In this document: positions 422 to 23,224 of the stretch, piece by piece
How the letters are laid out: every line of letters begins with the position of its first letter
Numbering within the stretch: position 1 is the first letter of the stretch
Assembly (NCBI GenBank): GCA_944358775.1
Contig: CALVRU010000001.1
Coordinates: 3,888 to 67,887, forward strand
Length of the DNA stretch: 64,000 nt
Direction: 5' to 3'
Source: an uncultured Bacilli bacterium
Lineage (GTDB): Bacteria; Bacillota_I; Bacilli_A; RF39; UBA660
Notes under the pieces: model-generated
The model's database searches: none
What the model was told of the DNA's origin: nothing
What the model saw: the letters and a program-made list of their open reading frames with translations, nothing else
Position numbers and translations under genes: made by a program

Positions 422-3112
422 TCAGCGAGTAAGAAATGTCAAAATAATTCCAACTAAAATTAAGAAGGTTCCAATCACTCCCAATATTAAAAACCAAACC
501 TTTGCTTTTCCACTATAATTAAGCGCCATTGAAGGATTGGTAAACGCCGTTTTAACTCCAAGATTTCCTTTCGAAAAAGCACTCACCAAAGATAAATATT
601 CTCGATTTGACTGGCACGGATAACCTTGCAAAAGCTGTAACATTTTTTTCGTTTCTGGGTGACTTTGAAAATAACTACCCACCGTTTTACTCTGACATAA
701 TTCTTCATAAAGACGAACATTCTGATAAGATAAATTTAACTCGCGCATACCGAAAACAAGATAAGCACTAAACTTATTCTCTTCATCCAAATGAGACATG
801 CTTTGATACTGAAACTCTGCCATTGAAACATGATCGACAGCCTGTTGTAAACACTGTGAATCCATCACATAATGATCCATCAATTCAATTGCCCTATGTA
901 TCTGTCGTTTTTCGTTATCCGTCATTTTTTCCAATTCTGGATACAAGTAATAAAAATGTTTCTCAATATCAAATAATTTCATCTCTTCAAAAATAGTTCG
1001 TAAATATTCCTTACCCTCTTCTTTTAAAGAAAATAAATAACTACTCAACATAACTTTCAAAAAATCTTGATTTGGAAAGAATGTTTCGACAAAACTAGAA
1101 ATAGGAACAAACATCAAAATCTGAAAATATGCTTTCCACAAACAATATTCTTTCGCCCGCTCCATTTTCTCTATCTGTTCTTTTTTCGTCCCATGAAAAA
1201 AACCTTCAACTTGAATTTGCTTTAAACGTTCTTGAAAATTAAAAATAGGCAAATCACATAATTCACCCGCCAAAGTGACCGATGACGGAAACAACATACA
1301 TCCTAAAGCATAAGAAGATCGATATAACGTAAGAGCAACTTTAGCTAGCGTCTTCGCAAGAAAAATACAATAATTTTCCTTCGAGACAGATTTCTCTTGT
1401 ACCAAGAAAGAAAGAGAAATAAAATCATCCGCTTGCAAATAGGCAAGATCCGAAATACGAAGACAAGACTGTACTTTACGAATCTGTTGTGCAAACTGAA
1501 TTCCCATCGGATACTTCTCATCAAAATGACGAATTAACTCTTGTGAAACGACATTCTTTAAAGAAATACGATTTAAATAATCCTTCATCAACTCTTGACG
1601 ATATGGTAACTGGAACTTTTCTAATATGGAATATGGAAATTCAGTTACCGATATTATCTCAGGGAACAAATGTTCCGGATCAGATAAACGACGATATACC
1701 GCCTCTTCTTTACTTAATTCATCGAGAAAACAAGCGCCTCGAAATCGTAAAGAAAAATGCGATGCTTGTAATGGATAACATTTTCGATCATTTCCCATAA
1801 AAGAAATAGAACCTTTCGAAGAGACCGTTCGATCGATTCCCTTAATCTGAAAAAAGTTCCCTTCCTCATCCATATAAAAGGCACTACGATCGACACTCCG
1901 TGTAAAAAAGCCTAATTGAAAAATATGCTGATTCAATGTTTGATTAACTTGTTCACACCATAATTCATAAGAAGAAAGAGAATTCGTCGATGGCAAACAG
2001 ATTGGTCGAAAAGTATAAATACCATTTTCCAAAAATAAATCGCCTGGAATAAACAAAGACTTCATCACAAATCGATTGATCAAAATCTGTTTCTCGTAAA
2101 TCGCTCGAATTTCAGGAACTGGAAAATGACTACTAATTTTCTCTTCCCCATCGAGCCATTCCAAAAAAGTAGTATACTCTTGAAAATCGATATCCCGATA
2201 GCAAATCAATCGATAAAATTCATAACACGTTGGCAAAGAATTTAATAATCCTTGCGCCTCCTTTTGCTGACAAAATGCTTGTTTCTTCATTTCGAAAGCA
2301 ATGGTCTGGTCCTCTTTTTCTGTAAGATCACGACTAATTTTTAAATTGTAAAAAGCTCGTTTTCGCAAATCGAAAACCTGACTCAATACATCTTGATCTG
2401 ATTTAGAAAGTTCACTTGTTAACTTCGGAAAAGACATCTCATTCGAAAACAATAATAACAAGCGCGTATAAACCGATTTTTCCAACATTGCTAAAGAAGA
2501 AAACTCGTAGATTCCAACAAAAGGAGTTAACATCGATTCAAAATAATACCATTTCTGGTTTTTTTGAAACGCCAAAAAATAATGAAAACAGTTACTATCT
2601 TTGGCAAAATCAAAATAATACTTACGAACTTCATAGCCCTTTGCACGCAAAAAACAAGAAGCTAACTCGACGATTTCAAAAGGTAGTGCCAATTTTTCTT
2701 TTAATACTTGAAACAAACTCCTTTTTTTAAAGTATTTTTGAATCAAATAATTACTAGTCATTACAAAAGGATTCGCATCATCCTGCAACTCTTTTGGAAT
2801 CATCTGATACATTTCTTTGAGATAACGAACGATCTGTGGATTTTGATAGTTACAATTCACATTTTTGCGATAAGAATGAATCCCATACGGAATAAAATGA
2901 TTGCGATATCGAAATCCATATTCAAACGTTTGTAAATAAGCGAGCAATTCTTCTTCCGAATGAATTCCAAAAGAAGCATACTGTTCTAAAATCTCATCTT
3001 GACTATACTCTTTCTCATTCACATCATCGATCAATTCAATATTCATAGATTCTTTTGCTTCTTGAAAAGAAGGTAACAATATATCATCGAGACTTTCAAT
3101 TTGTGTCTTCAT
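422..3112 (-). CDS. large hypothetical protein (896 aa), cytoplasmic with single C-terminal TM anchor (tail-anchored); no recognisable catalytic motifs
   Basis: Long uninterrupted ORF. Own promoter (TGnTATAAT extended -10 at 3138-3146) and AAAGGAGGG RBS. C-terminal hydrophobic helix WFLILGVIGTFLILVGIILTF. Confidence 0.7.
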   Translation of the reverse strand: MKTQIESLDDILLPSFQEAKESMNIELIDDVNEKEYSQDEILEQYASFGIHSEEELLAYLQTFEYGFRYRNHFIPYGIHSYRKNVNCNYQNPQIVRYLKEMYQMIPKELQDDANPFVMTSNYLIQKYFKKRSLFQVLKEKLALPFEIVELASCFLRAKGYEVRKYYFDFAKDSNCFHYFLAFQKNQKWYYFESMLTPFVGIYEFSSLAMLEKSVYTRLLLLFSNEMSFPKLTSELSKSDQDVLSQVFDLRKRAFYNLKISRDLTEKEDQTIAFEMKKQAFCQQKEAQGLLNSLPTCYEFYRLICYRDIDFQEYTTFLEWLDGEEKISSHFPVPEIRAIYEKQILINRFVMKSLFIPGDLFLENGIYTFRPICLPSTNSLSSYELWCEQVNQTLNQHIFQLGFFTRSVDRSAFYMDEEGNFFQIKGIDRTVSSKGSISFMGNDRKCYPLQASHFSLRFRGACFLDELSKEEAVYRRLSDPEHLFPEIISVTEFPYSILEKFQLPYRQELMKDYLNRISLKNVVSQELIRHFDEKYPMGIQFAQQIRKVQSCLRISDLAYLQADDFISLSFLVQEKSVSKENYCIFLAKTLAKVALTLYRSSYALGCMLFPSSVTLAGELCDLPIFNFQERLKQIQVEGFFHGTKKEQIEKMERAKEYCLWKAYFQILMFVPISSFVETFFPNQDFLKVMLSSYLFSLKEEGKEYLRTIFEEMKLFDIEKHFYYLYPELEKMTDNEKRQIHRAIELMDHYVMDSQCLQQAVDHVSMAEFQYQSMSHLDEENKFSAYLVFGMRELNLSYQNVRLYEELCQSKTVGSYFQSHPETKKMLQLLQGYPCQSNREYLSLVSAFSKGNLGVKTAFTNPSMALNYSGKAKVWFLILGVIGTFLILVGIILTFLTR

Positions 3113-11726: not shown

Positions 11727-11921
11727 ATATTTCAGTCTCCTTTCTTTACACATATCCAGGTGTATCATTTTCTATCTTAAAGATAGGTCTTGCTTATGCA
11801 AAACCTAAATTTAATCAGCGTACTTAATATATCACTATCGTAGTCAGAAAGTCAATAGAAAGATGAAAAAATCGTTTTCTTTTCTATTTTTATTCCAAAA
11901 ACAGAGCAAGGAATACCAGTT

Positions 11922-13103
11922 TTATTGATAAAGTCGTCCATTTAACTGTATAGCATCAATAATAACATATCCAGAATCTCCCAATACTTGAATTCCCAAA
12001 TATCGATTTCCTGTTACATTTGTGATGTCTAACGTCATACTAACATATTTTCCATTCTCCGACGTAACTTGTTTAAAACCACTTGTATAATGAACCCACG
12101 CAGAGGTAGTAGAATTAACAGCCGCAGAAATAGTAGCCGAATTTTGCACGCCAATTCCAATATAGATAGATGCATAGTGAGTTAAATCCATATTTAAATT
12201 GCGCCACGCATCTTGTCTACTTCGACCAGGAAGATCAAAACGTAAAGTAGTACCATCAGACCATGAACGAAATGGACACTCACGAACATCATAATTACCT
12301 TTAACCCATGTTCCAATTCCAACTTGATTCACCCATAATATTTTTTTGCTCTCATAAAGCCATTTCGGTCGTACTGTCACTCCATAGTCAGGCATCGTGA
12401 ACGTTTTTTGTGAAGAAGATAACGTAGTTAAAACTTCCTTTGTTTCGGTATTTGTAACCGTTGCCCCATAGTAACTAAATCCACTATTCGGAGTATTCGT
12501 AAGGGTGATCACTTCACCTGGCTTCGCAGATGCAACCGTCGTGGTTTTTCCACCAGTAACACTATCAACAAAAATTGGCAATGTCGATGGATATGCCTCA
12601 TCGATGCGAATTTGATTCGGTGAAAGAATCAACTCTTTATCTACCAAACCACCTTGTACTCCAATCGTCAGATTTCCACTCTTTCCACTACGATTTTGAA
12701 TTACCAAAGTAACGGTTACGTTTCCATTCGGATCTATATTTCCATACGGAAGAGAACCCTCTTCTTGATAATACACAGTAATATCGATAGAATTCGGATC
12801 CAAATAATATAACTGCCATGAACTTGTAAGTAAGTTGTTCGCTTGAATCGAAATCGGAAATTCAGAAATCTCCTGTTCCGTAAAAGAAAGTGTCATTTCA
12901 TTTTCATACTGCTCGTTTAACACGTAGTCAAAACGAACGGCCGCTAAACTAAGTACATTTTCTTTTTCAGTAGAAATCGTATAAAAAGCGTAGCTATAAC
13001 TGCCAATTAAAAGAAGTACCCCAAAAAGAAGAGTTACGATGATCACAGATAATCGTACTCTTTTCTTTAAGAAATGAAATACTTTTTTCGCTTTCTCCTT
13101 CAT
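11922..13103 (-). CDS. hypothetical secreted/surface protein (393 aa) with SipW-cognate-like signal peptide (IGSYSYAFYTISTEKE); expression apparently phase-variable
   Basis: Basic N-terminus plus hydrophobic helix plus SYAFY motif, the same signal type as the 49-52 kb cluster. Many NxS/T sites. Inserted between rpoC and rpsL with its own promoter. Confidence 0.65.
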   Translation of the reverse strand: MKEKAKKVFHFLKKRVRLSVIIVTLLFGVLLLIGSYSYAFYTISTEKENVLSLAAVRFDYVLNEQYENEMTLSFTEQEISEFPISIQANNLLTSSWQLYYLDPNSIDITVYYQEEGSLPYGNIDPNGNVTVTLVIQNRSGKSGNLTIGVQGGLVDKELILSPNQIRIDEAYPSTLPIFVDSVTGGKTTTVASAKPGEVITLTNTPNSGFSYYGATVTNTETKEVLTTLSSSQKTFTMPDYGVTVRPKWLYESKKILWVNQVGIGTWVKGNYDVRECPFRSWSDGTTLRFDLPGRSRQDAWRNLNMDLTHYASIYIGIGVQNSATISAAVNSTTSAWVHYTSGFKQVTSENGKYVSMTLDITNVTGNRYLGIQVLGDSGYVIIDAIQLNGRLYQ

Positions 13104-13130
13104 AATGACCTCACTTATTCTCTATAAATC

Positions 13131-13161
13131 ATTATACCCCCCCCCCAAGTGATTTTTGCAA
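13131..13161 (-). promoter_or_regulatory. promoter with (G)10 homopolymer in the -35/-10 spacer (TTGCAA at 13156-13161; spacer 19 nt incl. G10 at 13137-13146; TATAAT at 13131-13136), a candidate slipped-strand phase-variation switch
   Basis: Read on minus strand: ttgcaaaaatcacttgggggggggggtataat, then gagg RBS and ATG at 13103. This is the only G/C homopolymer of 6 or more in the 64-kb window. Confidence 0.65.
13137..13146. repeat. homopolymeric C10/G10 tract
   Basis: cccccccccc on the plus strand, unique in an AT-rich window. Confidence 0.95.
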
Positions 13162-13174
13162 GGAAAAATAGTCA

Positions 13175-13201
13175 CAAAAAAAAGATGGCCTAAAACCATC
13201 T
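13175..13201 (-). terminator. rho-independent terminator of the 60-aa prepilin-like ORF
   Basis: Minus-strand hairpin agatggttttaggccatct followed by tttttttt, directly after the TAA at 13202-13204. Confidence 0.7.
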
Positions 13202-13384
13202 TTAGCGGACAATATAATTAACGACTGCACCCCCAGACGGAAGCGGTGTACGAACGGGTTCATCCGATCCATCAATTCCCATGTTATGAGCTTGAATAAC
13301 GATAATGATAATCGCAATCGCAAAAATACAAAGTAACAAAATCATTTCGCCTAAACCCCAGCCACGTTCATTCAACTTTCTCAT
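13202..13384 (-). CDS. small protein (60 aa) with prepilin-like class III signal-peptide-like N-terminus (MRKLNERG/WGLGEMILLLCIFAIAIIIIVIQA)
   Basis: Own extended -10 promoter, AAGGAG RBS 7 nt upstream of the ATG, and own terminator. Short basic leader ending in G, Glu at +5, then a 20-residue hydrophobic stretch (compare GFTLIEM of ComGC/pseudopilins). Confidence 0.55.
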   Translation of the reverse strand: MRKLNERGWGLGEMILLLCIFAIAIIIIVIQAHNMGIDGSDEPVRTPLPSGGAVVNYIVR

Positions 13385-13401
13385 AACCTCACTCCTTGTA
13401 A

Positions 13402-13426
13402 AAGCATTATAACATATTTTATGCCA
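13402..13426 (-). promoter_or_regulatory. extended -10 promoter (TGtTATAAT) for the 60-aa ORF
   Basis: Minus strand ttggcataaaatatgttataat located between the rpoC terminator and the AAGGAG RBS. Confidence 0.55.
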
Positions 13427-13451
13427 AGAAAAAAGATAGATTTCTCTATCT
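13426..13451 (-). terminator. rho-independent terminator of rpoC
   Basis: Minus-strand agatagagaaatctatct followed by tttttt, immediately after the rpoC stop at 13452. Confidence 0.75.
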
Positions 13452-16400
13452 TTATTCCATAAATTGATCTTCTAATGCTTCTAAAGGTTCCTCATCTGTA
13501 AATTGACTTTTTAATTCATACTCGACATTCTTATATTTCTTAAGACCTGTTCCAGCTGGAATCAATTTACCAATGATGACATTCTCTTTTAAGCCTTGTA
13601 AGTGATCGACTTTACCACGAATAGCAGCATCCGTTAAGATTCTTGTCGTCTCTTGGAACGAAGCAGCTGATAAGAACGATTCTGTTTCAAGAGCAGCTTT
13701 CGTAATACCAAGAAGAACTGGTCTACCTAAAGCTGGTTTCTTACCACGGATAATGACTTCTTTATTACCATCTGTAAATTCATGATAATTAACAAGGCTA
13801 CCTGGTAAGAATCTCGTATCACCAGATTCGATAATCTTAATACGGTTGATCATTCGACTAGCGATTACTTCGATATGTTTATCAGAAATGTCAACACCTT
13901 GTGAACGATACGTATATTGAACTTCTTTTAAGATGTATTCTTGCGTAGTAAGTGGATCCGTAACAGCAAGCAATTCTTTTGGATTGATTGCTCCTTCTGT
14001 TAACTTGTCACCTGCTGATACCGTATCACCGATAGCTACTCTTAGTTTTGCACCATAAGTAGTTACATGTTCTTTCGTCTCAAGATCATTAGCAATACTG
14101 ATCTTATATTTACCATGTTCATCTTCAATCTTGGTCACTTTACCATCGATCTCGGCGATCGCTGCATGACCTTTAGGATTCCGTGCTTCAAACAATTCTT
14201 GAACACGTGGAAGACCTTGGGTAATATCTTCTCCACCGGCAACACCACCGTTGTGGAAAGTTCTCATGGTTAACTGAGTACCTGGCTCACCGATTGATTG
14301 GGCAGCCATAATACCGATTGCTTCACCAATTTCAACCAAGTTACCAGTTGCAAGGTTACGACCATAACATTTTTGACATACACCATTATGAGTATTACAA
14401 GTAAGAATGGTTCGAATTTCAACTTCTTCGATACCAGCTGCAACGATCTTCTCGGCAATTGGTTCCGTAATATAAGTCAACTTCTCACAAATAACTTCTT
14501 TCGTCTTTGGATCGACGACTTTCTTATTTGTAAACCGACCGATAATACGATCATATAAACTTTCGATAACCGCACCTGTTTTATCATTCAAGAAAGCTCG
14601 AACAATAACACCATTTTCGGTTCCGCAATCTTCTTCTTTCACAATCATATCTTGGCTGACATCGACCAAACGCCTCGTCAAATATCCAGAGTCTGCAGTT
14701 CTTAATGCGGTATCGGCACTACCTTTACGAGAGCCGTGACTTGACAAGAAGAATTCCGATACCGAAAGTCCTTCACGGAAGTTCGAAAGAACTGGGATTT
14801 CCACAGGCTCACCATTTGGTTTTGCCATAAGTCCACGCATACCAGCAACCTGTGTAAACTGTGCAATACTACCACGTGCTTTCGAATGCATCATGATGAA
14901 AATTGGATTATCCACATCTTGTTGTGAAATTGCTTCCAACTCACGTTGAACTTGGTCTTTTGCACCGTTCCATGTTTCGATTACCTTCGCTTTACGCTCA
15001 TCTTCCGTAATAAGACCTTTCTTATATTGTTTATTAATATTATTAACAGTCTTCTGAGCATCGTCGACAATCTCCTGTTTTTTATCACTGGTTACGACAT
15101 CACTGATGGAAATCGTAATACCAGAAATCGTCGAATATTTAAAGCCTAAATCTTTCATCTTATCGAGCATAATCGAAGTTTCCGTCGTCCGATAACGTTT
15201 GAAAGTTTGAGCAATGACATCTTGTAATGTACCTTTTGCAAAAGGTTTTACAAGAGGCATCTCGGCAATCGCCGCTTTAATATCCGTACCTTTTTCTAAG
15301 AAGTATTTATTCGGCGTAATCTTTTGAATATTCTCTTTCGACGGTTCATTAATATATGGGAACGAATCTGGTAAAATTTCGTTGAATTTAATCTTACCAA
15401 CCGTCGTTACCAAATATTTTCCATGTTGTTCTTCTGTAAAAATCTTATGTTTGAACGAATCGACTGGAATCGCAATTCGTGTATGTAACGTAATTTCACG
15501 ACGTTCATAAGCCATTAAAGCCTCATTCGTATCTTTGAAGATTCTACCTTCTCCTTCTAAACCAGCTTTCTCCATCGTAATATAGTAGTTACCAAGCACC
15601 ATATCTTGTCCTGGTGTTACGATTGGATCACCTGATTTTGGATGAAGGATGTTATTCGCACCTAACATAAGAATGCGGGCTTCAGCTTGCGCTTCTTCGG
15701 AAAGCGGTACGTGAACAGCCATCTGGTCACCGTCGAAATCCGCATTGAAAGCCGTACAAACAAGTGGATGCAAACGAATTGCTTTACCACCGATTAATAC
15801 TGGTTCAAATGCTTGAATACCTAAACGGTGAAGCGTTGGTGCACGGTTAAGTAGCACTGGGTGTTCTTTAATGACCTCTTCGACAACATCCCAAACAGCT
15901 GGATCTTGATTTTCGATCATTCTCTTTGCCGCTTTGATGTTATGAGCAATATCTTTTGAGACTAAACCATGAATGACATGTGGTTTAAATAATTCAAGTG
16001 CCATTTCTTTTGGAATACCACATTGATACATTTTTAGACTTGGTCCAACGACGATAACGGAACGACCAGAATAGTCGACACGTTTTCCTAGCAAGTTCTG
16101 ACGGAATCTTCCTTGTTTACCTTTTAACATACTAGATAATGACTTTAACGGACGATTTCCAGGACCTGTTACACTACGACCACGACGTCCATTATCGAAA
16201 AGAGCATCAACTGCTTCTTGAAGCATACGTTTTTCATTTTGAATAATAATCATCGGTGCACCCAAATCAATTAGCTTTTTCAAACGATTATTACGGTTGA
16301 TTACTCGACGATATAAATCATTTAAATCACTCGTCGCAAACCGACCACCATCAAGTTGAATCATTGGTCTTAAATCTGGTGGAATAACTGGAATACAATC

Positions 16401-17084
16401 TAAAATCATCCATTCAGGACGATTGCCTGATTTAGCAAACGCATCCAACACATCGATTCTCTTTAAAAGACGTGTTCTCTTTTGTCCCTGTGCATTCTCA
16501 AGTTCTTTTTCGATTTCGGCAATTTCTTTTTCTAGATCTACTTTTTTAAGTAATTCTTTAATTGCTTCAGCACCCATTCCAACACGGAAACCATTTCCAT
16601 ATTTTTCATAGTATGCACGATATTCTTTTTCAGACAAAATTTGCTTATTTTCTAAAGGTGAAATACCTTTATCAATAACAACATAACTGACAAAGTATAA
16701 TACTTCTTCCAAATCACGTGGACTCATATCAAGTACTAATCCCATTCGTGATGGCACACCTTTAAAAAACCAAATGTGCGAAACAGGACTTGCAAGTTCG
16801 ATATGTCCCATTCTCTCACGACGAACTTTCGAACGGGTTACTTCGACGCCACAACGATCACAAACGATGTTCTTATAACGAACGCGTTTATATTTTCCGC
16901 AGGCACATTCAAAATCTTTCGTTGGTCCAAAAATCTTTTCACAGAATAGACCATCCCGTTCTGGGCGAAGAGTACGGTAGTTAATCGTCTCTGGCTTTTT
17001 AACTTCCCCGTAACTCCATTCCCGAATCTTATCCGGAGATGCAATACCAATTTTAATCGCTTCAAATTTATCAACTGCTAGCAT
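13452..17084 (-). CDS. rpoC: DNA-directed RNA polymerase subunit beta-prime
   Basis: 1210 aa. NADFDGDQM catalytic motif and zinc-finger CxxC...CxxC at the N-terminus. Confidence 0.97.
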
Positions 17085-20000
17085 TACTCATCATCTCCTT
17101 CCATAGAATCAAATTCAAAATTTTCATTATCCATAAATTCTTCTTCAAAATCATCATCGTCGTCATCGTCATCAAAAGAATCTTCTTCATCATCGTATTC
17201 TTCCTCCGAACCACTGACTTCTAATGGAATTGGTTTTTCGATTTCTTCGATGTCCGTCTTAACATCGTCTTTTGATTCTTCCTCTTCGATCTCTTTCATG
17301 TCGAGACTTCTACCCTCGTCATCGATAATGTTCATATCGAGACCTAAAGCTTGAAACTCTTTCATAAGAACACGGAAACTTTCTGGAACTCCTGCCTGAT
17401 TGATTTCTTGTCCTTTGACGATCGATTCGTAGACTTTAACACGACCGATGACATCATCGGATTTAACCGTCATCATCTCTTGTAGAGTGTGAGCAGCACC
17501 ATAAGCATAAAGTGCCCAAACTTCCATTTCTCCGAACCGCTGACCACCAAATTGCGCTTTACCACCAAGTGGTTGTTGCGTAACTAAAGAATATGGTCCT
17601 GTACTTCTCGCATGTAATTTATCGTCGACCATGTGGTGTAATTTAATCATGTACATGACACCGACACAAATTCGATTATCAAATGGTTCTCCAGTTCTTC
17701 CATCGTATAAGACCGATTTACCATCCGGATCCATTCCTGCTTCTTTCATCATTTCTGCAATATCATCCGTATTCGCACCATCGAATACTGGAGTTGCCGT
17801 ATGAACACCTAATTTTTTCGCAGCAAGTCCTAAATGCATCTCTAAAACCTGTCCTAAGTTCATACGTGATGGAACACCTTGTGGATTCAACATAATATCA
17901 ACTGGTGTACCATCTGCCAAATATGGCATATCTTCACTTGGTAAAATAAGGGAAATAACACCTTTGTTACCATGTCGACCAGACATTTTATCTCCAACTT
18001 GAATTTTTCTCTTTTGCGCAATGTAGACACGAATTACTTTACTGACACCTGCAGGTAACTCATCATTTTCTTTTCGAGAATAAATCTTGACTTCATGTAC
18101 GATACCTTCTGCACCATGTGGAACACGAAGAGATGTATCACGAACTTCACGTGTTTTTTCACCGAAAATAGCATGTAACAATTTTTCTTCCGAAGTAAGT
18201 TCAGCCATTCCTTTTGGTGTTACTTTACCAACTAAGATATCGCCTTCTTTCACTTCTGTACCAACGACGACAATACCATTTTCATCAAGGTTTTTACGAG
18301 CTTCCTCACTGACGTTTGGAATATCACGAGTAATTTCTTCTGGTCCTAATTTCGTTTCCCGACATTGCATTTCGTAATCTTCAATATGAATCGAAGTATA
18401 AGCATCATCGCGAACTAATTTTTCATTTAAGATAACGGCATCCTCATAGTTATATCCGTTGAACGTCATAAATGCAACGACGACGTTTTTACCTAATGCA
18501 AGTTCACCTTTATCCATACTAGGACCATCGGCAATGACATGTCCCATTTTAACTTCTTCGCCAACTTTGACGATTGGACGATGATGGTAACAAGAATCTT
18601 GGTTACTCTCTTCGAAATTGGCAAGATAATATGTATCTTTTCCTGTTTTATTTTTAACGACAATTCGTTTCGCATCGACATACTCGACAACACCGTCGGC
18701 TTTCGCAACAACTGCTGCTCCAGAATCCCGGGCTGCAATATATTCGACACCGGTTCCAACAAAAGGTGCTTCTGCTTTTAAAAGTGGTACCGACTGACGT
18801 TGCATGTTAGCACCCATCAAAGCACGGTTCGCATCGTCGTGTTCCAAGAATGGAATACAGCTCGTCGTCACCGCAACTACTTGTTGAGGTGATACGTCGA
18901 TGTAATCTACTTGTTCTGGTTTTGCTAAAATATTTTCACCACGATAACGAGCAGATACGCGATGAGCAATAATATTGTTATCTTCATCCGTATCGACAGT
19001 CGCTTCTGAAATAATTAAATCCATCTCTTCATCGGCCGTCAAATAACGAATTTCATCCGTAATATGACAGTTTTCCACTTTTCGATATGGCGTCATAATA
19101 AATCCGTATTCATCTACTTTCGCATAACTTGCAAGCGAGGTAATAAGTCCAATGTTCGGTCCTTCTGGTGACTCAACTGGACAAATACGACCATAGTGTG
19201 ATGGGTTAACGTCACGAACTTCCATACCTGCACGATCACGAGATAATCCACCTGGACCTAATGCAGATAAACGACGTTTGTGCGTTAATTCCGAAATCGG
19301 ATTAATCTGATCCATGAATTGCGACAATTGGCTACTACCAAAGAATTCTTTCATCGCTGCCGTAACTGGACGAATATTAATCAAAGTCTTCGGTGTTACT
19401 TCTTCCATCTCTTGAGTAGTCATTCGCTCACGAATTACTCGCTCCATCCGACTGACACCAATGCGGAATTGGTTTTGTAAAAGTTCTCCCACTTGACGCA
19501 CACGACGATTACCTAAATGATCGATTTCATCAAAATTACCAAATCCATCTAATAAATTCAAATAATAAGAAACCGCCGCATAAACATCGGAAATCGTAAG
19601 TCTCTTTACTTCGATCGATTGATCGTTACCGATGATCGTAATTGTCTTCTTCTTATCTGTCGGATCGACGATTTTAATTTCTTGTACTTTATTATAAGAA
19701 TCTAATTCTTCATTTATTTTAACTTCTTTTAATCCGTACCCTGCTACAATTACTGGACGTAATTCTTCAATTAAATCCTTCGTTACAACCGTTCCTTTTT
19801 CGGCATAAACTTTATCTTCCCATTTAATATCTTCTGCTAAAGTTTGTCCTAAAAGACGATCTAAAACATTCAATTTACGGTTGAATTTATAACGACCAAC
19901 GCGCGCTAAATCATAACGGAATTCATCAAAGAAACGCGTAATAATATGGTTCTTCGAAGAATCTAAAGTAGCTGGTTCTCCTGGTCTTAATTTTTCATAA

Positions 20001-20707
20001 ATTTCAATTAATGCTTCATCTAAATTACGAGTCGAATCCTTTGCAATCGTATTTTCAAGATAAGCATTTTTACCAAATACTTGATAAATATCTTCATCGG
20101 TCGATAACCCAAACGCTCTTAAAAGAGTCGTTAAAGTTACTTTTCTCGTCCGATCGATTCGAACATATAAAACGTCTCTTGCATCCGCTTCGAATTCAAG
20201 CCATGTTCCACGTGTTGGAATAATTTGTGACGTAATTAATTCCCGACCATTTTTATCGATTTCACGATTAAAATACACACTTGGTGAACGTACCAACTGC
20301 GATACAATAACCCGTTCTGCTCCATTGATAACGAACGTTCCACTATCCGTCATAATCGGCATATCACCCATGAAAATTTCTTGTTCTTTGACTTCGCCTG
20401 TCTCATGGTTAAAAAGCCGTACCTCTACTTTTAAAGGAGCCGCATAATTCGTCTCACGATCCTTACATTCTTTAATAGAATATCTCGGTTCATCAAAATG
20501 ATAATCACCAAATTCCAACGACAAAGTTCCCGAAAAGTTTTCCACTGGGAATAAATCATCAAAAACTTCCTTAATTCCTTCCTCTACAAACCAACGATAA
20601 GATTTTGTTTGAATTTCCAACAAATCTTTAAGGTTGAACGTATTTTTTATTTTTGAGAAATTTCTTCTTTTTCTGTAATCTCCACAATCCACAATTTTAT
20701 ATGCCAC
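17084..20707 (-). CDS. rpoB: DNA-directed RNA polymerase subunit beta (with long acidic C-terminal tail)
   Basis: 1207 aa. Conserved RpoB blocks. C-terminal D/E-rich extension as in many Firmicutes. Confidence 0.97.
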
Positions 20708-21521: not shown

Positions 21522-22064
21522 CTAATCAACAGTAATTGCTTCGATCTTTAAAACGACACCATTTTGATTATACGTATATACTTCTCCCTTCGTAGAATCA
21601 CTACCGACAACAGTAACTTCTACGTTGCCAGCTTCCGTTGTTTTAATACTCGTAATTCTACTAGCACTACTATTGTAACCACTAAAAATCTTTTGATTAC
21701 CTAAAAATAATGCCCATTTATCATTGCTATTCGTTGTTACCGCCGGTGCATATTCAATATAAGTTTTTTTATCATTCAGATTAATCTTATAACATTGACT
21801 TCTCGTAGTATCCGTAATCGTAATATCCGTATACACTTGATCCGTACCACAAGCATTATAGGCAGTAAGATCTTCATTATCTTCAATAATTGGTGTTGGT
21901 GTAGGTATTACTTCATCATTATTGTTTTCTGAATAATTTCCATTTTGTTCAGATAAGTAAAAATACATTCCCAATGCACCAAGTAGAAAAAAGATAATTG
22001 CAATCATACAAGCCAAAATAACCGTTCCTTTAAATTGTTGGCTGACTTCTTTTTTATTGGCCAT
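21522..22064 (-). CDS. hypothetical membrane-anchored/secreted protein (180 aa), possible SipW-type signal (LGALGMYFYLSEQ)
   Basis: N-terminal basic region plus TM/signal helix. Thr/Ser/Asn-rich extracellular part. Own promoter after the rplL terminator. Sits between rplL and ybxB. Confidence 0.6.
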   Translation of the reverse strand: MANKKEVSQQFKGTVILACMIAIIFFLLGALGMYFYLSEQNGNYSENNNDEVIPTPTPIIEDNEDLTAYNACGTDQVYTDITITDTTRSQCYKINLNDKKTYIEYAPAVTTNSNDKWALFLGNQKIFSGYNSSASRITSIKTTEAGNVEVTVVGSDSTKGEVYTYNQNGVVLKIEAITVD

Positions 22065-23059: not shown

Positions 23060-23224
23060 GTTTCGACCGCCTTTCTTTTAAATTTTAGGAGCGCCATAAA
23101 AAAGGTCTTTTATCCATAGACAAAAGACCTCTCTTTACTAAAAAAGTAGTCCTCGGTAGGATTTACTTTTATACCTACTGTCTATGGCACCAATAAAATT
23201 AAATTTATTATATAACGATTGCAA
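23060..23224 (-). ncRNA. candidate ribosomal protein L10 (rplJ) leader / autoregulatory attenuator
   Basis: 165-nt untranslated leader between rplA and rplJ. It contains a hairpin (ggtcttttgtctatggataaaagacc) followed by a U-run, as in Firmicutes L10 leaders. Confidence 0.45.

Follow-up and report, generated by a model that had tools for sequence, protein, structure and literature searches.

A gene for a predicted surface protein, with a homopolymeric guanine tract inside its promoter, lies between rpoC and rpsL in the chromosome of an uncultured Bacilli bacterium. We analysed this locus in a 64-kb stretch of contig CALVRU010000001.1, referred to below as the window, to which all coordinates refer unless another contig is named. 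The block 11922-13451, which runs from the stop of the gene in question to the base after the rpoC stop, holds two open reading frames (ORFs) on the minus strand, ORF393 (393 aa) and ORF60 (60 aa). Our results suggest that ORF393 is probably one locus of a small surface-protein family whose members would be turned on and off by slippage of the promoter homopolymer.

A poly-G tract in the ORF393 promoter

Reading of the sequence upstream of ORF393 gave the following elements:

13161-13156 and 13136-13131, minus strand: ORF393 promoter, with -35 hexamer TTGCAA, a 19-nt spacer and -10 hexamer TATAAT
13137-13146, minus strand: poly-G tract G10 (poly-C on the plus strand) at the 3' end of the spacer, a candidate phase-variation switch

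The spacer between TTGCAA and TATAAT is made up of 9 nt followed by G10, and no other homopolymer of G or C in the window reaches 6 nt. The run exceeds the length of about 8 from which slippage is expected. The original prediction had called this promoter phase-variable; a hypermutable-looking homopolymer is there, and its length is polymorphic between assemblies. Five states were found at the ORF393 locus among 14 assemblies (L numbers are our handles for the contigs and loci compared):

G9: L015, L017
G10: the window, L016, L018, L021, L022, L024
G11: L001, L020
G7TGG: L011, L012, L019
G8TGG: L023

Across the observed tracts, an intact -35 hexamer is separated from the -10 by 18-20 nt. The interrupted tracts, G7TGG and G8TGG, create TGGTATAAT, an extended -10 element. 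In L002, the promoter of a 410-aa family member combines TTGCAA and TATAAT with a 17-nt spacer that lacks a tract, and its leader resembles that of ORF393. Because this promoter shares the hexamers at 17 nt, it fixes both the hexamers of ORF393 and the expected spacer optimum.

The ORF393 promoter is also a hot spot for insertion sequences (IS) in other strains. A DDE_Tnp_1 element lies within the G tract of L017 (1082-2590 of that contig), where the order is G10, the IS and then G9. A second IS type, with the inverted repeat ...TATACCCTCTATAAAAAGTGTCTAAA..., adjoins the -35 in L010 (2830-2977) and at the 5' ends of L021, L022, L023 and L024. Contig breaks near the promoter were considered as evidence of tract heterogeneity and rejected, since a 96%-identical cassette repeat and the IS copies explain them better.

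The promoter cassette recurs in a second core gene cluster

Comparison by blastn delimited a portable unit that includes the promoter:

12598-13162, minus strand: cassette of 565 bp comprising the promoter, the G tract, the 5' untranslated region and codons 1-168 of ORF393

The cassette extends from the -35 hexamer through codon 168. It is 95.6% identical over 565 bp to a paralogue in L009, and the corresponding value between L019 and L009 is 96.8%; beyond codon 168, ORF393 and the paralogue are unrelated. The paralogue (P0006 / P0007, 568 aa) sits between divIB and ftsA-ftsZ (L009 5958-7707; L031 1-1920). Its tract reads G10 in L009 and G6AGGG in L031. Within a single sample, represented by L009 and L019, the paralogue carries G10 and the ORF393 locus G7TGG. 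The position of the paralogue makes it a second insertion of this family into a highly conserved essential gene cluster, the dcw cluster.

More distant homologues, at about 31% identity, occur in three uncultured Bacilli metagenome-assembled genomes (MAGs) at other loci and often in tandem, and the family is therefore not tied to rpoC-rpsL. Among GTDB representative genomes, the family motif was confined to three uncultured Bacilli MAGs with six loci in all, of which none lies at rpoC-rpsL and none is from the window species. The only G/C runs of at least 7 nt at the six distant loci sit just upstream of genes for the N-terminal module (N-module) of the family (G10 in L006, G7 in L008). These two runs, both from one distant Bacilli MAG, lie inside tiny ORFs (MKDSSRLTWGGG... 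and MKNDNKKLTGGGG..., at L006 8040-8100 and L008 640-700), with a conserved GTTAACC ahead of them; the ORFs may be leader peptides, gene fragments or chance occurrences. The promoter cassette gave 0 matches in JGI metagenome contigs, and the proteins of the window species that we looked up have NCBI, ENA and Logan as their only sources.

ORF393 is present throughout the species and varies in its C-terminal domain

To analyze the distribution of ORF393, conspecific contigs were retrieved by exact protein sequence. The gene is carried by 12 contigs from different samples and is present in all conspecific assemblies that span it (12/12). Seven of the 12 contigs run through rpoC-ORF60-ORF393-rpsL in the same arrangement, and five begin upstream of ORF393, four of these within an IS. 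Three further contigs terminate just past ORF60. ORF393 was not found at rpoC-rpsL in the sister taxa examined. The gene had been predicted to be accessory; its distribution shows it to be lineage-specific, and what differs between strains is the sequence, the promoter tract and the IS insertions.

Between the window and L001, the flanking genes rpoB, rpoC, rpsL, rpsG, fusA and tuf are 99.2-100% identical at the nucleotide level, with a synonymous divergence (dS) of at most 0.04. The corresponding values for ORF393 are 84% nucleotide and 81% amino-acid identity, a dS of 0.40 and a ratio of nonsynonymous to synonymous divergence (dN/dS) of 0.31. Sliding identity between the two sequences located the divergence:

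11925-12645, minus strand: hypervariable segment, a recombination mosaic, in the 3' 720 nt of ORF393

Identity is 0.50-0.95 within this segment (12645-11925) and 0.92-1.00 on either side; directly past the stop codon it is again 1.00. Among the twelve ORF393 alleles, residues 1-150 are 94-100% identical, and residues 251-393 fall into three types that are 59-66% identical to one another within one species: that of the window and most other alleles, that of L001 and L022, and that of L020. The L020 protein has, in addition, a mosaic linker. Three divergent C-terminal types and a mosaic linker are the signature of allelic replacement by recombination in the predicted exposed domain. The GC content of ORF393 (37.1%) and its GC content at third codon positions (27.7%) are similar to those of its neighbours, and a foreign origin inferred from composition was rejected on this ground. 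In L023, the start codon (118-120) is AGG rather than ATG, so that the gene is called as 374 aa; this allele may be inactivated.

Predicted architecture of the ORF393 protein

The 393-aa product had been predicted to be secreted. Structure prediction with AF2 (mean pLDDT 79.5) supports an N-terminal signal or anchor followed by extracellular domains that are predicted to be all-beta. The model contains a long N-terminal helix, formed by a basic N-region and a hydrophobic stretch, a beta-sandwich (residues 57-170), a B-repeat and a jelly-roll (residues 251-393):

Residues 1-44: basic N-region, hydrophobic helix and invariant S-Y-A motif
Residues 57-170: immunoglobulin (Ig)-like sandwich, from AF2
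12360-12569, minus strand, residues 179-248: InlB B-repeat-like domain (Pfam Flg_new_2, PF18998)
11925-12353, minus strand, residues 251-393: C-terminal beta jelly-roll, the part that varies between alleles (pLDDT ~90)

The B-repeat is the sole Pfam match in ORF393, and it lies above the gathering threshold (E = 1.9e-6; 28.2 bits, threshold 23.6). ORF393 shares this domain with the Listeria InlB / Flg_new_2 B-repeat proteins and differs from them in having a single repeat, no leucine-rich repeats, no GW/LPXTG anchor and a different N-terminal module. An invariant S-Y-A motif, with F, M, I or Y as the next residue, comes after the hydrophobic stretch and fits the -3/-1 positions of a signal-peptidase site. 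There is no lipobox, as residues 1-60 contain no Cys. A TasA/camelysin or SipW-type signal, considered for the pattern S-Y-A-x-F-T, was rejected, since no NCBIfam, Pfam or PDB sequence match was obtained. A TasA/camelysin fold was rejected as well: Foldseek searches with the N-module returned only generic Ig/PapD/MSP-like sandwiches (E >= 2.7e-3), and none of the best 50 matches was of that fold. Against PDB sequences, neither the N-module nor the C-terminal domain gave anything below E = 0.2.

A profile search of 1.8 billion representative proteins gave 2111 matches, and because it finds each of the three modules apart from the others, in hundreds of proteins, the modules occur independently. 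The N-module stands at the start of proteins of 170-850 aa whose passengers are diverse; one such protein has an ALK/LTK-type glycine-rich and an F5/8-type C domain. The B-repeat is present in 5-23 copies in giant surface proteins. The C-terminal domain is found at the end of proteins that begin differently, among them the true prepilin P0015. From this architecture we infer that ORF393 would be an exposed ligand-binding protein of the adhesin type.

Gene order and transcription signals around ORF393

The gene order of the window is Bacillus-like, judged by Pfam families on the called genes. They include RecR, BofA, TRCF (Mfd-type), SpoVT, TilS, FtsH, a Clp ATPase, a sigma-70-family factor, SecE, NusG and the ribosomal proteins L11, L1, L10 and L12, followed by rpoBC; the GC content of the window is 35.4%. 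The two additional ORFs that had been reported between rpoC and rpsL are both present in the gene map:

17084-20707, minus strand: rpoB
13452-17084, minus strand: rpoC
13202-13384, minus strand: ORF60 (MRKLNERGWGLGE), 60 aa, with a transmembrane helix and a short Pro-rich tail; predicted small single-pass membrane protein
11922-13103, minus strand: ORF393, 393 aa
11313-11726, minus strand: rpsL, followed by rpsG, fusA and tuf, also on the minus strand

The transcription signals of the interval are as follows:

13432-13453, minus strand: rpoC intrinsic terminator, hairpin AAAGATAGA-GAAA-TCTATCTTT with a T-run (folding -8.8 kcal/mol, z = -2.9)
13406-13414, minus strand: ORF60 extended -10 promoter TGTTATAAT, read directly from the sequence
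13392-13397, minus strand: ORF60 ribosome-binding site AAGGAG
13173-13203, minus strand: ORF60 intrinsic terminator, 10-bp stem (hairpin 13203-13181) with a T-run (-12.6 kcal/mol, z = -3.2)
11826-11855, minus strand: str operon promoter TTGACT-18-TATATT, with TG ahead of the -10

The rpoC terminator and the promoter, ribosome-binding site and terminator of ORF60 were thus recovered by sequence reading or folding, and the str promoter stands where it had been claimed (11855-11826). The rpoC terminator does not appear in the output of a consensus scan because its stem is AT-rich. By sequence reading, no -35 hexamer lies within usable distance of TGTTATAAT. Promoters of the str type with a conserved leader are likewise present in L025, L026, L027 and L029. 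Downstream of ORF393, the sequence folds no better than shuffled sequence (z = -0.47) and no recognisable terminator was found. The claim that each unit carries its own transcription signals is thus correct for most signals and fails for the 3' end of ORF393.

ORF60 is probably a short form of a gene resident at the site

The exact ORF60 sequence is found on 131 contigs. The L001 gene encodes the same protein (100% identity) and differs at 2 silent sites; 1-2 amino-acid changes are found in other strains. No Pfam or NCBIfam family matches it. The closest RpoC proteins outside the species are 85-88% identical, and four of these lineages were compared at rpoC-rpsL:

L025 (RpoC 88%): 158 aa
L026 (RpoC 87%): 166 aa
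L027 / L028 (RpoC 87%): 73 aa and 163 aa
L029 / L030 (RpoC 85%): 61 aa (called in L029 only) and tandem paralogues of 318 and 319 aa

The 158-, 166- and 163-aa proteins start with M-x-(K/E)-L-(N/D)-N-(R/K)-G-W-G and continue with a transmembrane helix, a Pro/Thr-rich linker and a domain of ~90 residues with two Cys. By BLASTP, ORF60 matches the N-termini of the proteins from L025 (L025_158), L026 (L026_166) and L027 (L027_163) with E = 1e-16, 6e-15 and 1e-10, respectively. Since ORF60 aligns with the first ~50 residues of these proteins and ends inside the region that matches their linker, we consider it a short, probably truncated form of the NxRGWG-motif gene resident at this site. The original prediction of a two-gene insertion is not borne out, as ORF60 matches the N-terminus of a 158-166-aa sister-taxon gene at the same position and is resident rather than cargo. 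The long form itself, searched as the 166-aa sister-taxon protein, has no Pfam, NCBIfam or PDB relative (nothing below E = 0.2 in PDB).

In L029 (8738-10890), this site holds another cargo: a 61-aa ORF with an NKGWG motif is accompanied by the tandem pair of 318- and 319-aa paralogues. These paralogues are 71% identical to each other, have a hydrophobic N-terminus and belong to no Pfam family. The rpoC-rpsL junction is a recurrent site of gene gain in this clade, and each lineage examined holds a different cargo.

A direct repeat brackets ORF60 and ORF393

The 3' end of rpoC is partly duplicated downstream of ORF393:

11880-11901 and 13442-13463, minus strand: imperfect direct repeat (19/22 matches) in which the rpoC 3' end and its terminator arm are copied

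The repeat brackets a 1562-bp block that holds ORF60 and ORF393. The expected number of 22-nt matches at this level is 0.01 per 64 kb. Allowing gaps extends the similarity to ~40 nt (local score 20; null 13.1 +/- 1.7), and no such repeat of the rpoC end is present in L025, L026, L027 or L029. The repeat is probably the scar of an insertion, and a Campbell-type or duplicative event is possible. As regards features of a mobile island, the rpoC-rpsL interval has no recombinase, a GC content of 37%, close to that of its neighbours, and the bracketing repeat of ~22-40 nt.

Other features of the window

Between rplL and a ybxB-like methyltransferase gene, upstream of rpoB, lies a 180-aa ORF without a family (21522-22064, minus strand), in which an acidic Pro/Thr-rich linker joins an N-terminal transmembrane helix to a small domain; its place is taken by a 168-aa ORF in L025 and is empty in L026 and L027. 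RpoB ends in a long acidic tail whose last residues are DE (17084-17200, minus strand). An 896-aa ORF without a Pfam match and with a C-terminal transmembrane helix adjoins an enolase-family gene (422-3112, minus strand) and is conserved in L001. The only Rfam matches in the window are two ordinary elements, a T-box leader upstream of a methionyl-tRNA-synthetase-like gene and a ribosomal L10 leader (55027-55233 and 23090-23205, minus strand); Rfam gave nothing in the rpoC-rpsL interval. The window contains no tRNA genes.

A model for ORF393 and its parallels in known systems

We propose a model in which ORF393 is subject to phase variation at the level of transcription. Gain or loss of a G in the tract would alter the spacing between the -35 and -10 hexamers, which amounts to 19 nt in the window sequence, to 18-20 nt wherever the -35 is intact and to 17 nt in the tractless L002 promoter. 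Such a change in spacing would set each locus of the family, independently of the others, to a high or a low level of transcription. The exposed C-terminal domain would bind a ligand, possibly a glycan, and may be under diversifying selection from host immunity or phage. As for its origin, the ORF393 cassette would have inserted behind rpoC in this lineage and replaced the 3' two-thirds of the resident gene, leaving ORF60 with a new terminator and a ~40-nt duplicate of the rpoC end. Because ORF393 has no terminator, the promoter in its ON state would read into the str operon.

Repeats within promoters are known to control surface proteins in PorA, hifA/B and Mycoplasma hyorhinis (PMC3899988). 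In Neisseria meningitidis, a poly-G tract lies between the -35 and -10 of the surface-protein gene porA, and one-base changes alter their spacing (PMC3899988). In M. hyorhinis, each vlp gene has a poly-A tract in its promoter (PMC10502178), and the Vlp genes combine their own homopolymer promoters with a conserved 5' region and signal sequence and with divergent C-terminal parts (PMC10502178, PMC11868660). Since the same poly-G cassette is found at two loci, the arrangement described here parallels both porA and the Vlp system.

As in porA (and also opc and fetA), a poly-G tract fills the spacer of ORF393 and sets it to 18-20 nt according to tract length. Unlike porA, ORF393 belongs to an unrelated protein family in a Gram-positive-type, spore-former-like low-GC Bacilli host and has a candidate switch that has been copied to a second locus together with the leader and the N-terminal module. 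The likeness to Vlp lies in the 565-bp cassette, 96% identical between two loci whose tract states differ within one sample. The differences are that the ORF393 family has no lipobox, and its members are therefore not lipoproteins; that it is dispersed inside core gene clusters, not clustered; that its tract is poly-G and that of Vlp poly-A; and that its variation comes from allelic replacement of a folded domain, where Vlp proteins vary in tandem coding repeats. The mechanism is well known, and the organism, the protein family and the placement inside core gene clusters are new.

Alternative explanations

One alternative is that the poly-G tract is neutral or error-prone, that ORF393 is expressed constitutively, weakly or by read-through, and that the tract differences reflect strain polymorphism or assembly error. 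Several points speak for this or against the proposed model. The tract lengths come from consensus assemblies, in which errors of +/-1 are possible at G9-G11. All uninterrupted tracts give spacers of 18-20 nt and never the presumed optimum of 17, so that either most populations are in a low or off state or the tract works differently from our proposal. The -35 hexamer TTGCAA matches the consensus at 4/6 positions, and the stabilised G7TGG of several samples generates TGnTATAAT, an extended -10 that could make the promoter independent of the tract. Just two family loci, rpoC-rpsL and divIB-ftsA, were seen in the contigs of the species. However, a neutral tract would have to account for the sole G/C run of at least 6 nt in 64 kb at 35% GC falling exactly in the promoter spacer, for its retention in the paralogue's copy of the promoter, for the recurrence of G runs ahead of distant family members, and for at least five states among strains whose flanks are 99-100% identical (flanks compared in full for L001). 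This pattern matches what is expected of a contingency locus (PMC3899988). We therefore regard a neutral tract as unlikely, well behind phase variation by promoter slippage. Surface display and ligand binding, which our model assumes, meet objections of their own. The N-terminal segment is a candidate signal or anchor that may be cleaved, giving a secreted protein, or retained, giving an anchored one; ORF393 has no LPXTG motif and no wall-binding domain recognised by Pfam. The model of the C-terminal domain resembles carbohydrate-binding modules weakly: its match to CBM_6 (E = 0.046) is under the cut-off, and the Foldseek matches to CBM22, CBM27 and CenC-like proteins were obtained with the multi-domain model at TM 0.2-0.5.

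Two further alternatives concern ORF60. The original prediction had called it prepilin-like, and the locus could accordingly be a self-contained two-gene accessory island in which ORF60 and the secreted ORF393 were acquired together and act together, for instance as a pilin and a tip adhesin. Like type IV prepilins and ComGC-type pseudopilins, ORF60 combines a short, basic N-terminal stretch with a Gly, a Glu at the fifth residue past this Gly, and a hydrophobic helix; its sequence R-G|W-G-L-G-E resembles the prepilin site G|FxxxE. In the distant relative P0015, the B-repeat and C-terminal domain follow the N-terminus of a true prepilin, and both ORFs are bracketed by the direct repeat. However, ORF60 gave nothing even at E <= 1 with the prepilin profiles PF07963 and TIGR02532, both of which match the P0015 control, and pairwise comparison of ORF60 with P0015 yielded no alignment. 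The Gly is conserved among ORF60 relatives, and the residue at +5 is E only in the window species and M, A, T or N in L025, L026, L027 and L029, so the resemblance is specific to the window species. A Pro/Thr-rich linker follows the transmembrane helix in place of a continuous pilin helix, and Pfam annotation of the called genes revealed no prepilin peptidase or pilus-assembly gene in the window-equivalent region. ORF60-type genes occupy the same site in taxa without ORF393, ORF393 family members occur at other loci without an ORF60-like neighbour, and ORF60 has a strong terminator of its own. ORF60 was rejected as a prepilin on the profiles, the pairwise comparison and the sequences of its relatives; the two-gene island is largely refuted, and we consider it very improbable. 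A less remote, though still doubtful, alternative is that ORF60 is the functional conserved core of a small membrane protein that is always encoded behind rpoC and has an optional ectodomain, the site behind it serving as a recurrent landing pad for unrelated cargo. Because the 61-aa form in L029 precedes two unrelated tandem genes, the ORF60 peptide may be functional in its own right, and calling it a truncated remnant may undersell it. Its promoter, ribosome-binding site and terminator are retained, it is identical on the 131 contigs, and it shows no non-synonymous change relative to L001. Against this, the gene is of the long form in every one of the nearest sister taxa by RpoC identity, and divergence within the species, at the few differences given above, is too low for selection to be measured.

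Implications

Together, our results point to a candidate multi-locus homopolymer system in an uncultured low-GC Bacilli lineage, built on an unannotated protein family. The host is apparently a gut commensal; its origin from the gut is suggested by the labels of samples, for example 'Hadza' on a contig of a sister taxon. Multi-locus, repeat-driven phase variation has been described mainly in pathogens, and a recent review asks whether this reflects a real restriction or database bias (PMC11868660). Tract length and the three C-terminal alleles offer a marker for ON/OFF states and strain types in metagenomic reads.

It is tempting to speculate further, if only tentatively, that this uncultured, walled Bacilli bacterium possesses a Vlp-like multi-locus contingency system, in which the 565-bp unit of poly-G promoter, leader and anchor module captures different binding domains and is seeded into essential clusters that would never be lost by deletion, at the rpoBC/str junction and, within the dcw cluster, at divIB-ftsA. 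If this were true, the bacterium would combine combinatorial on/off display at the cell surface with allelic exchange of tip domains between strains.

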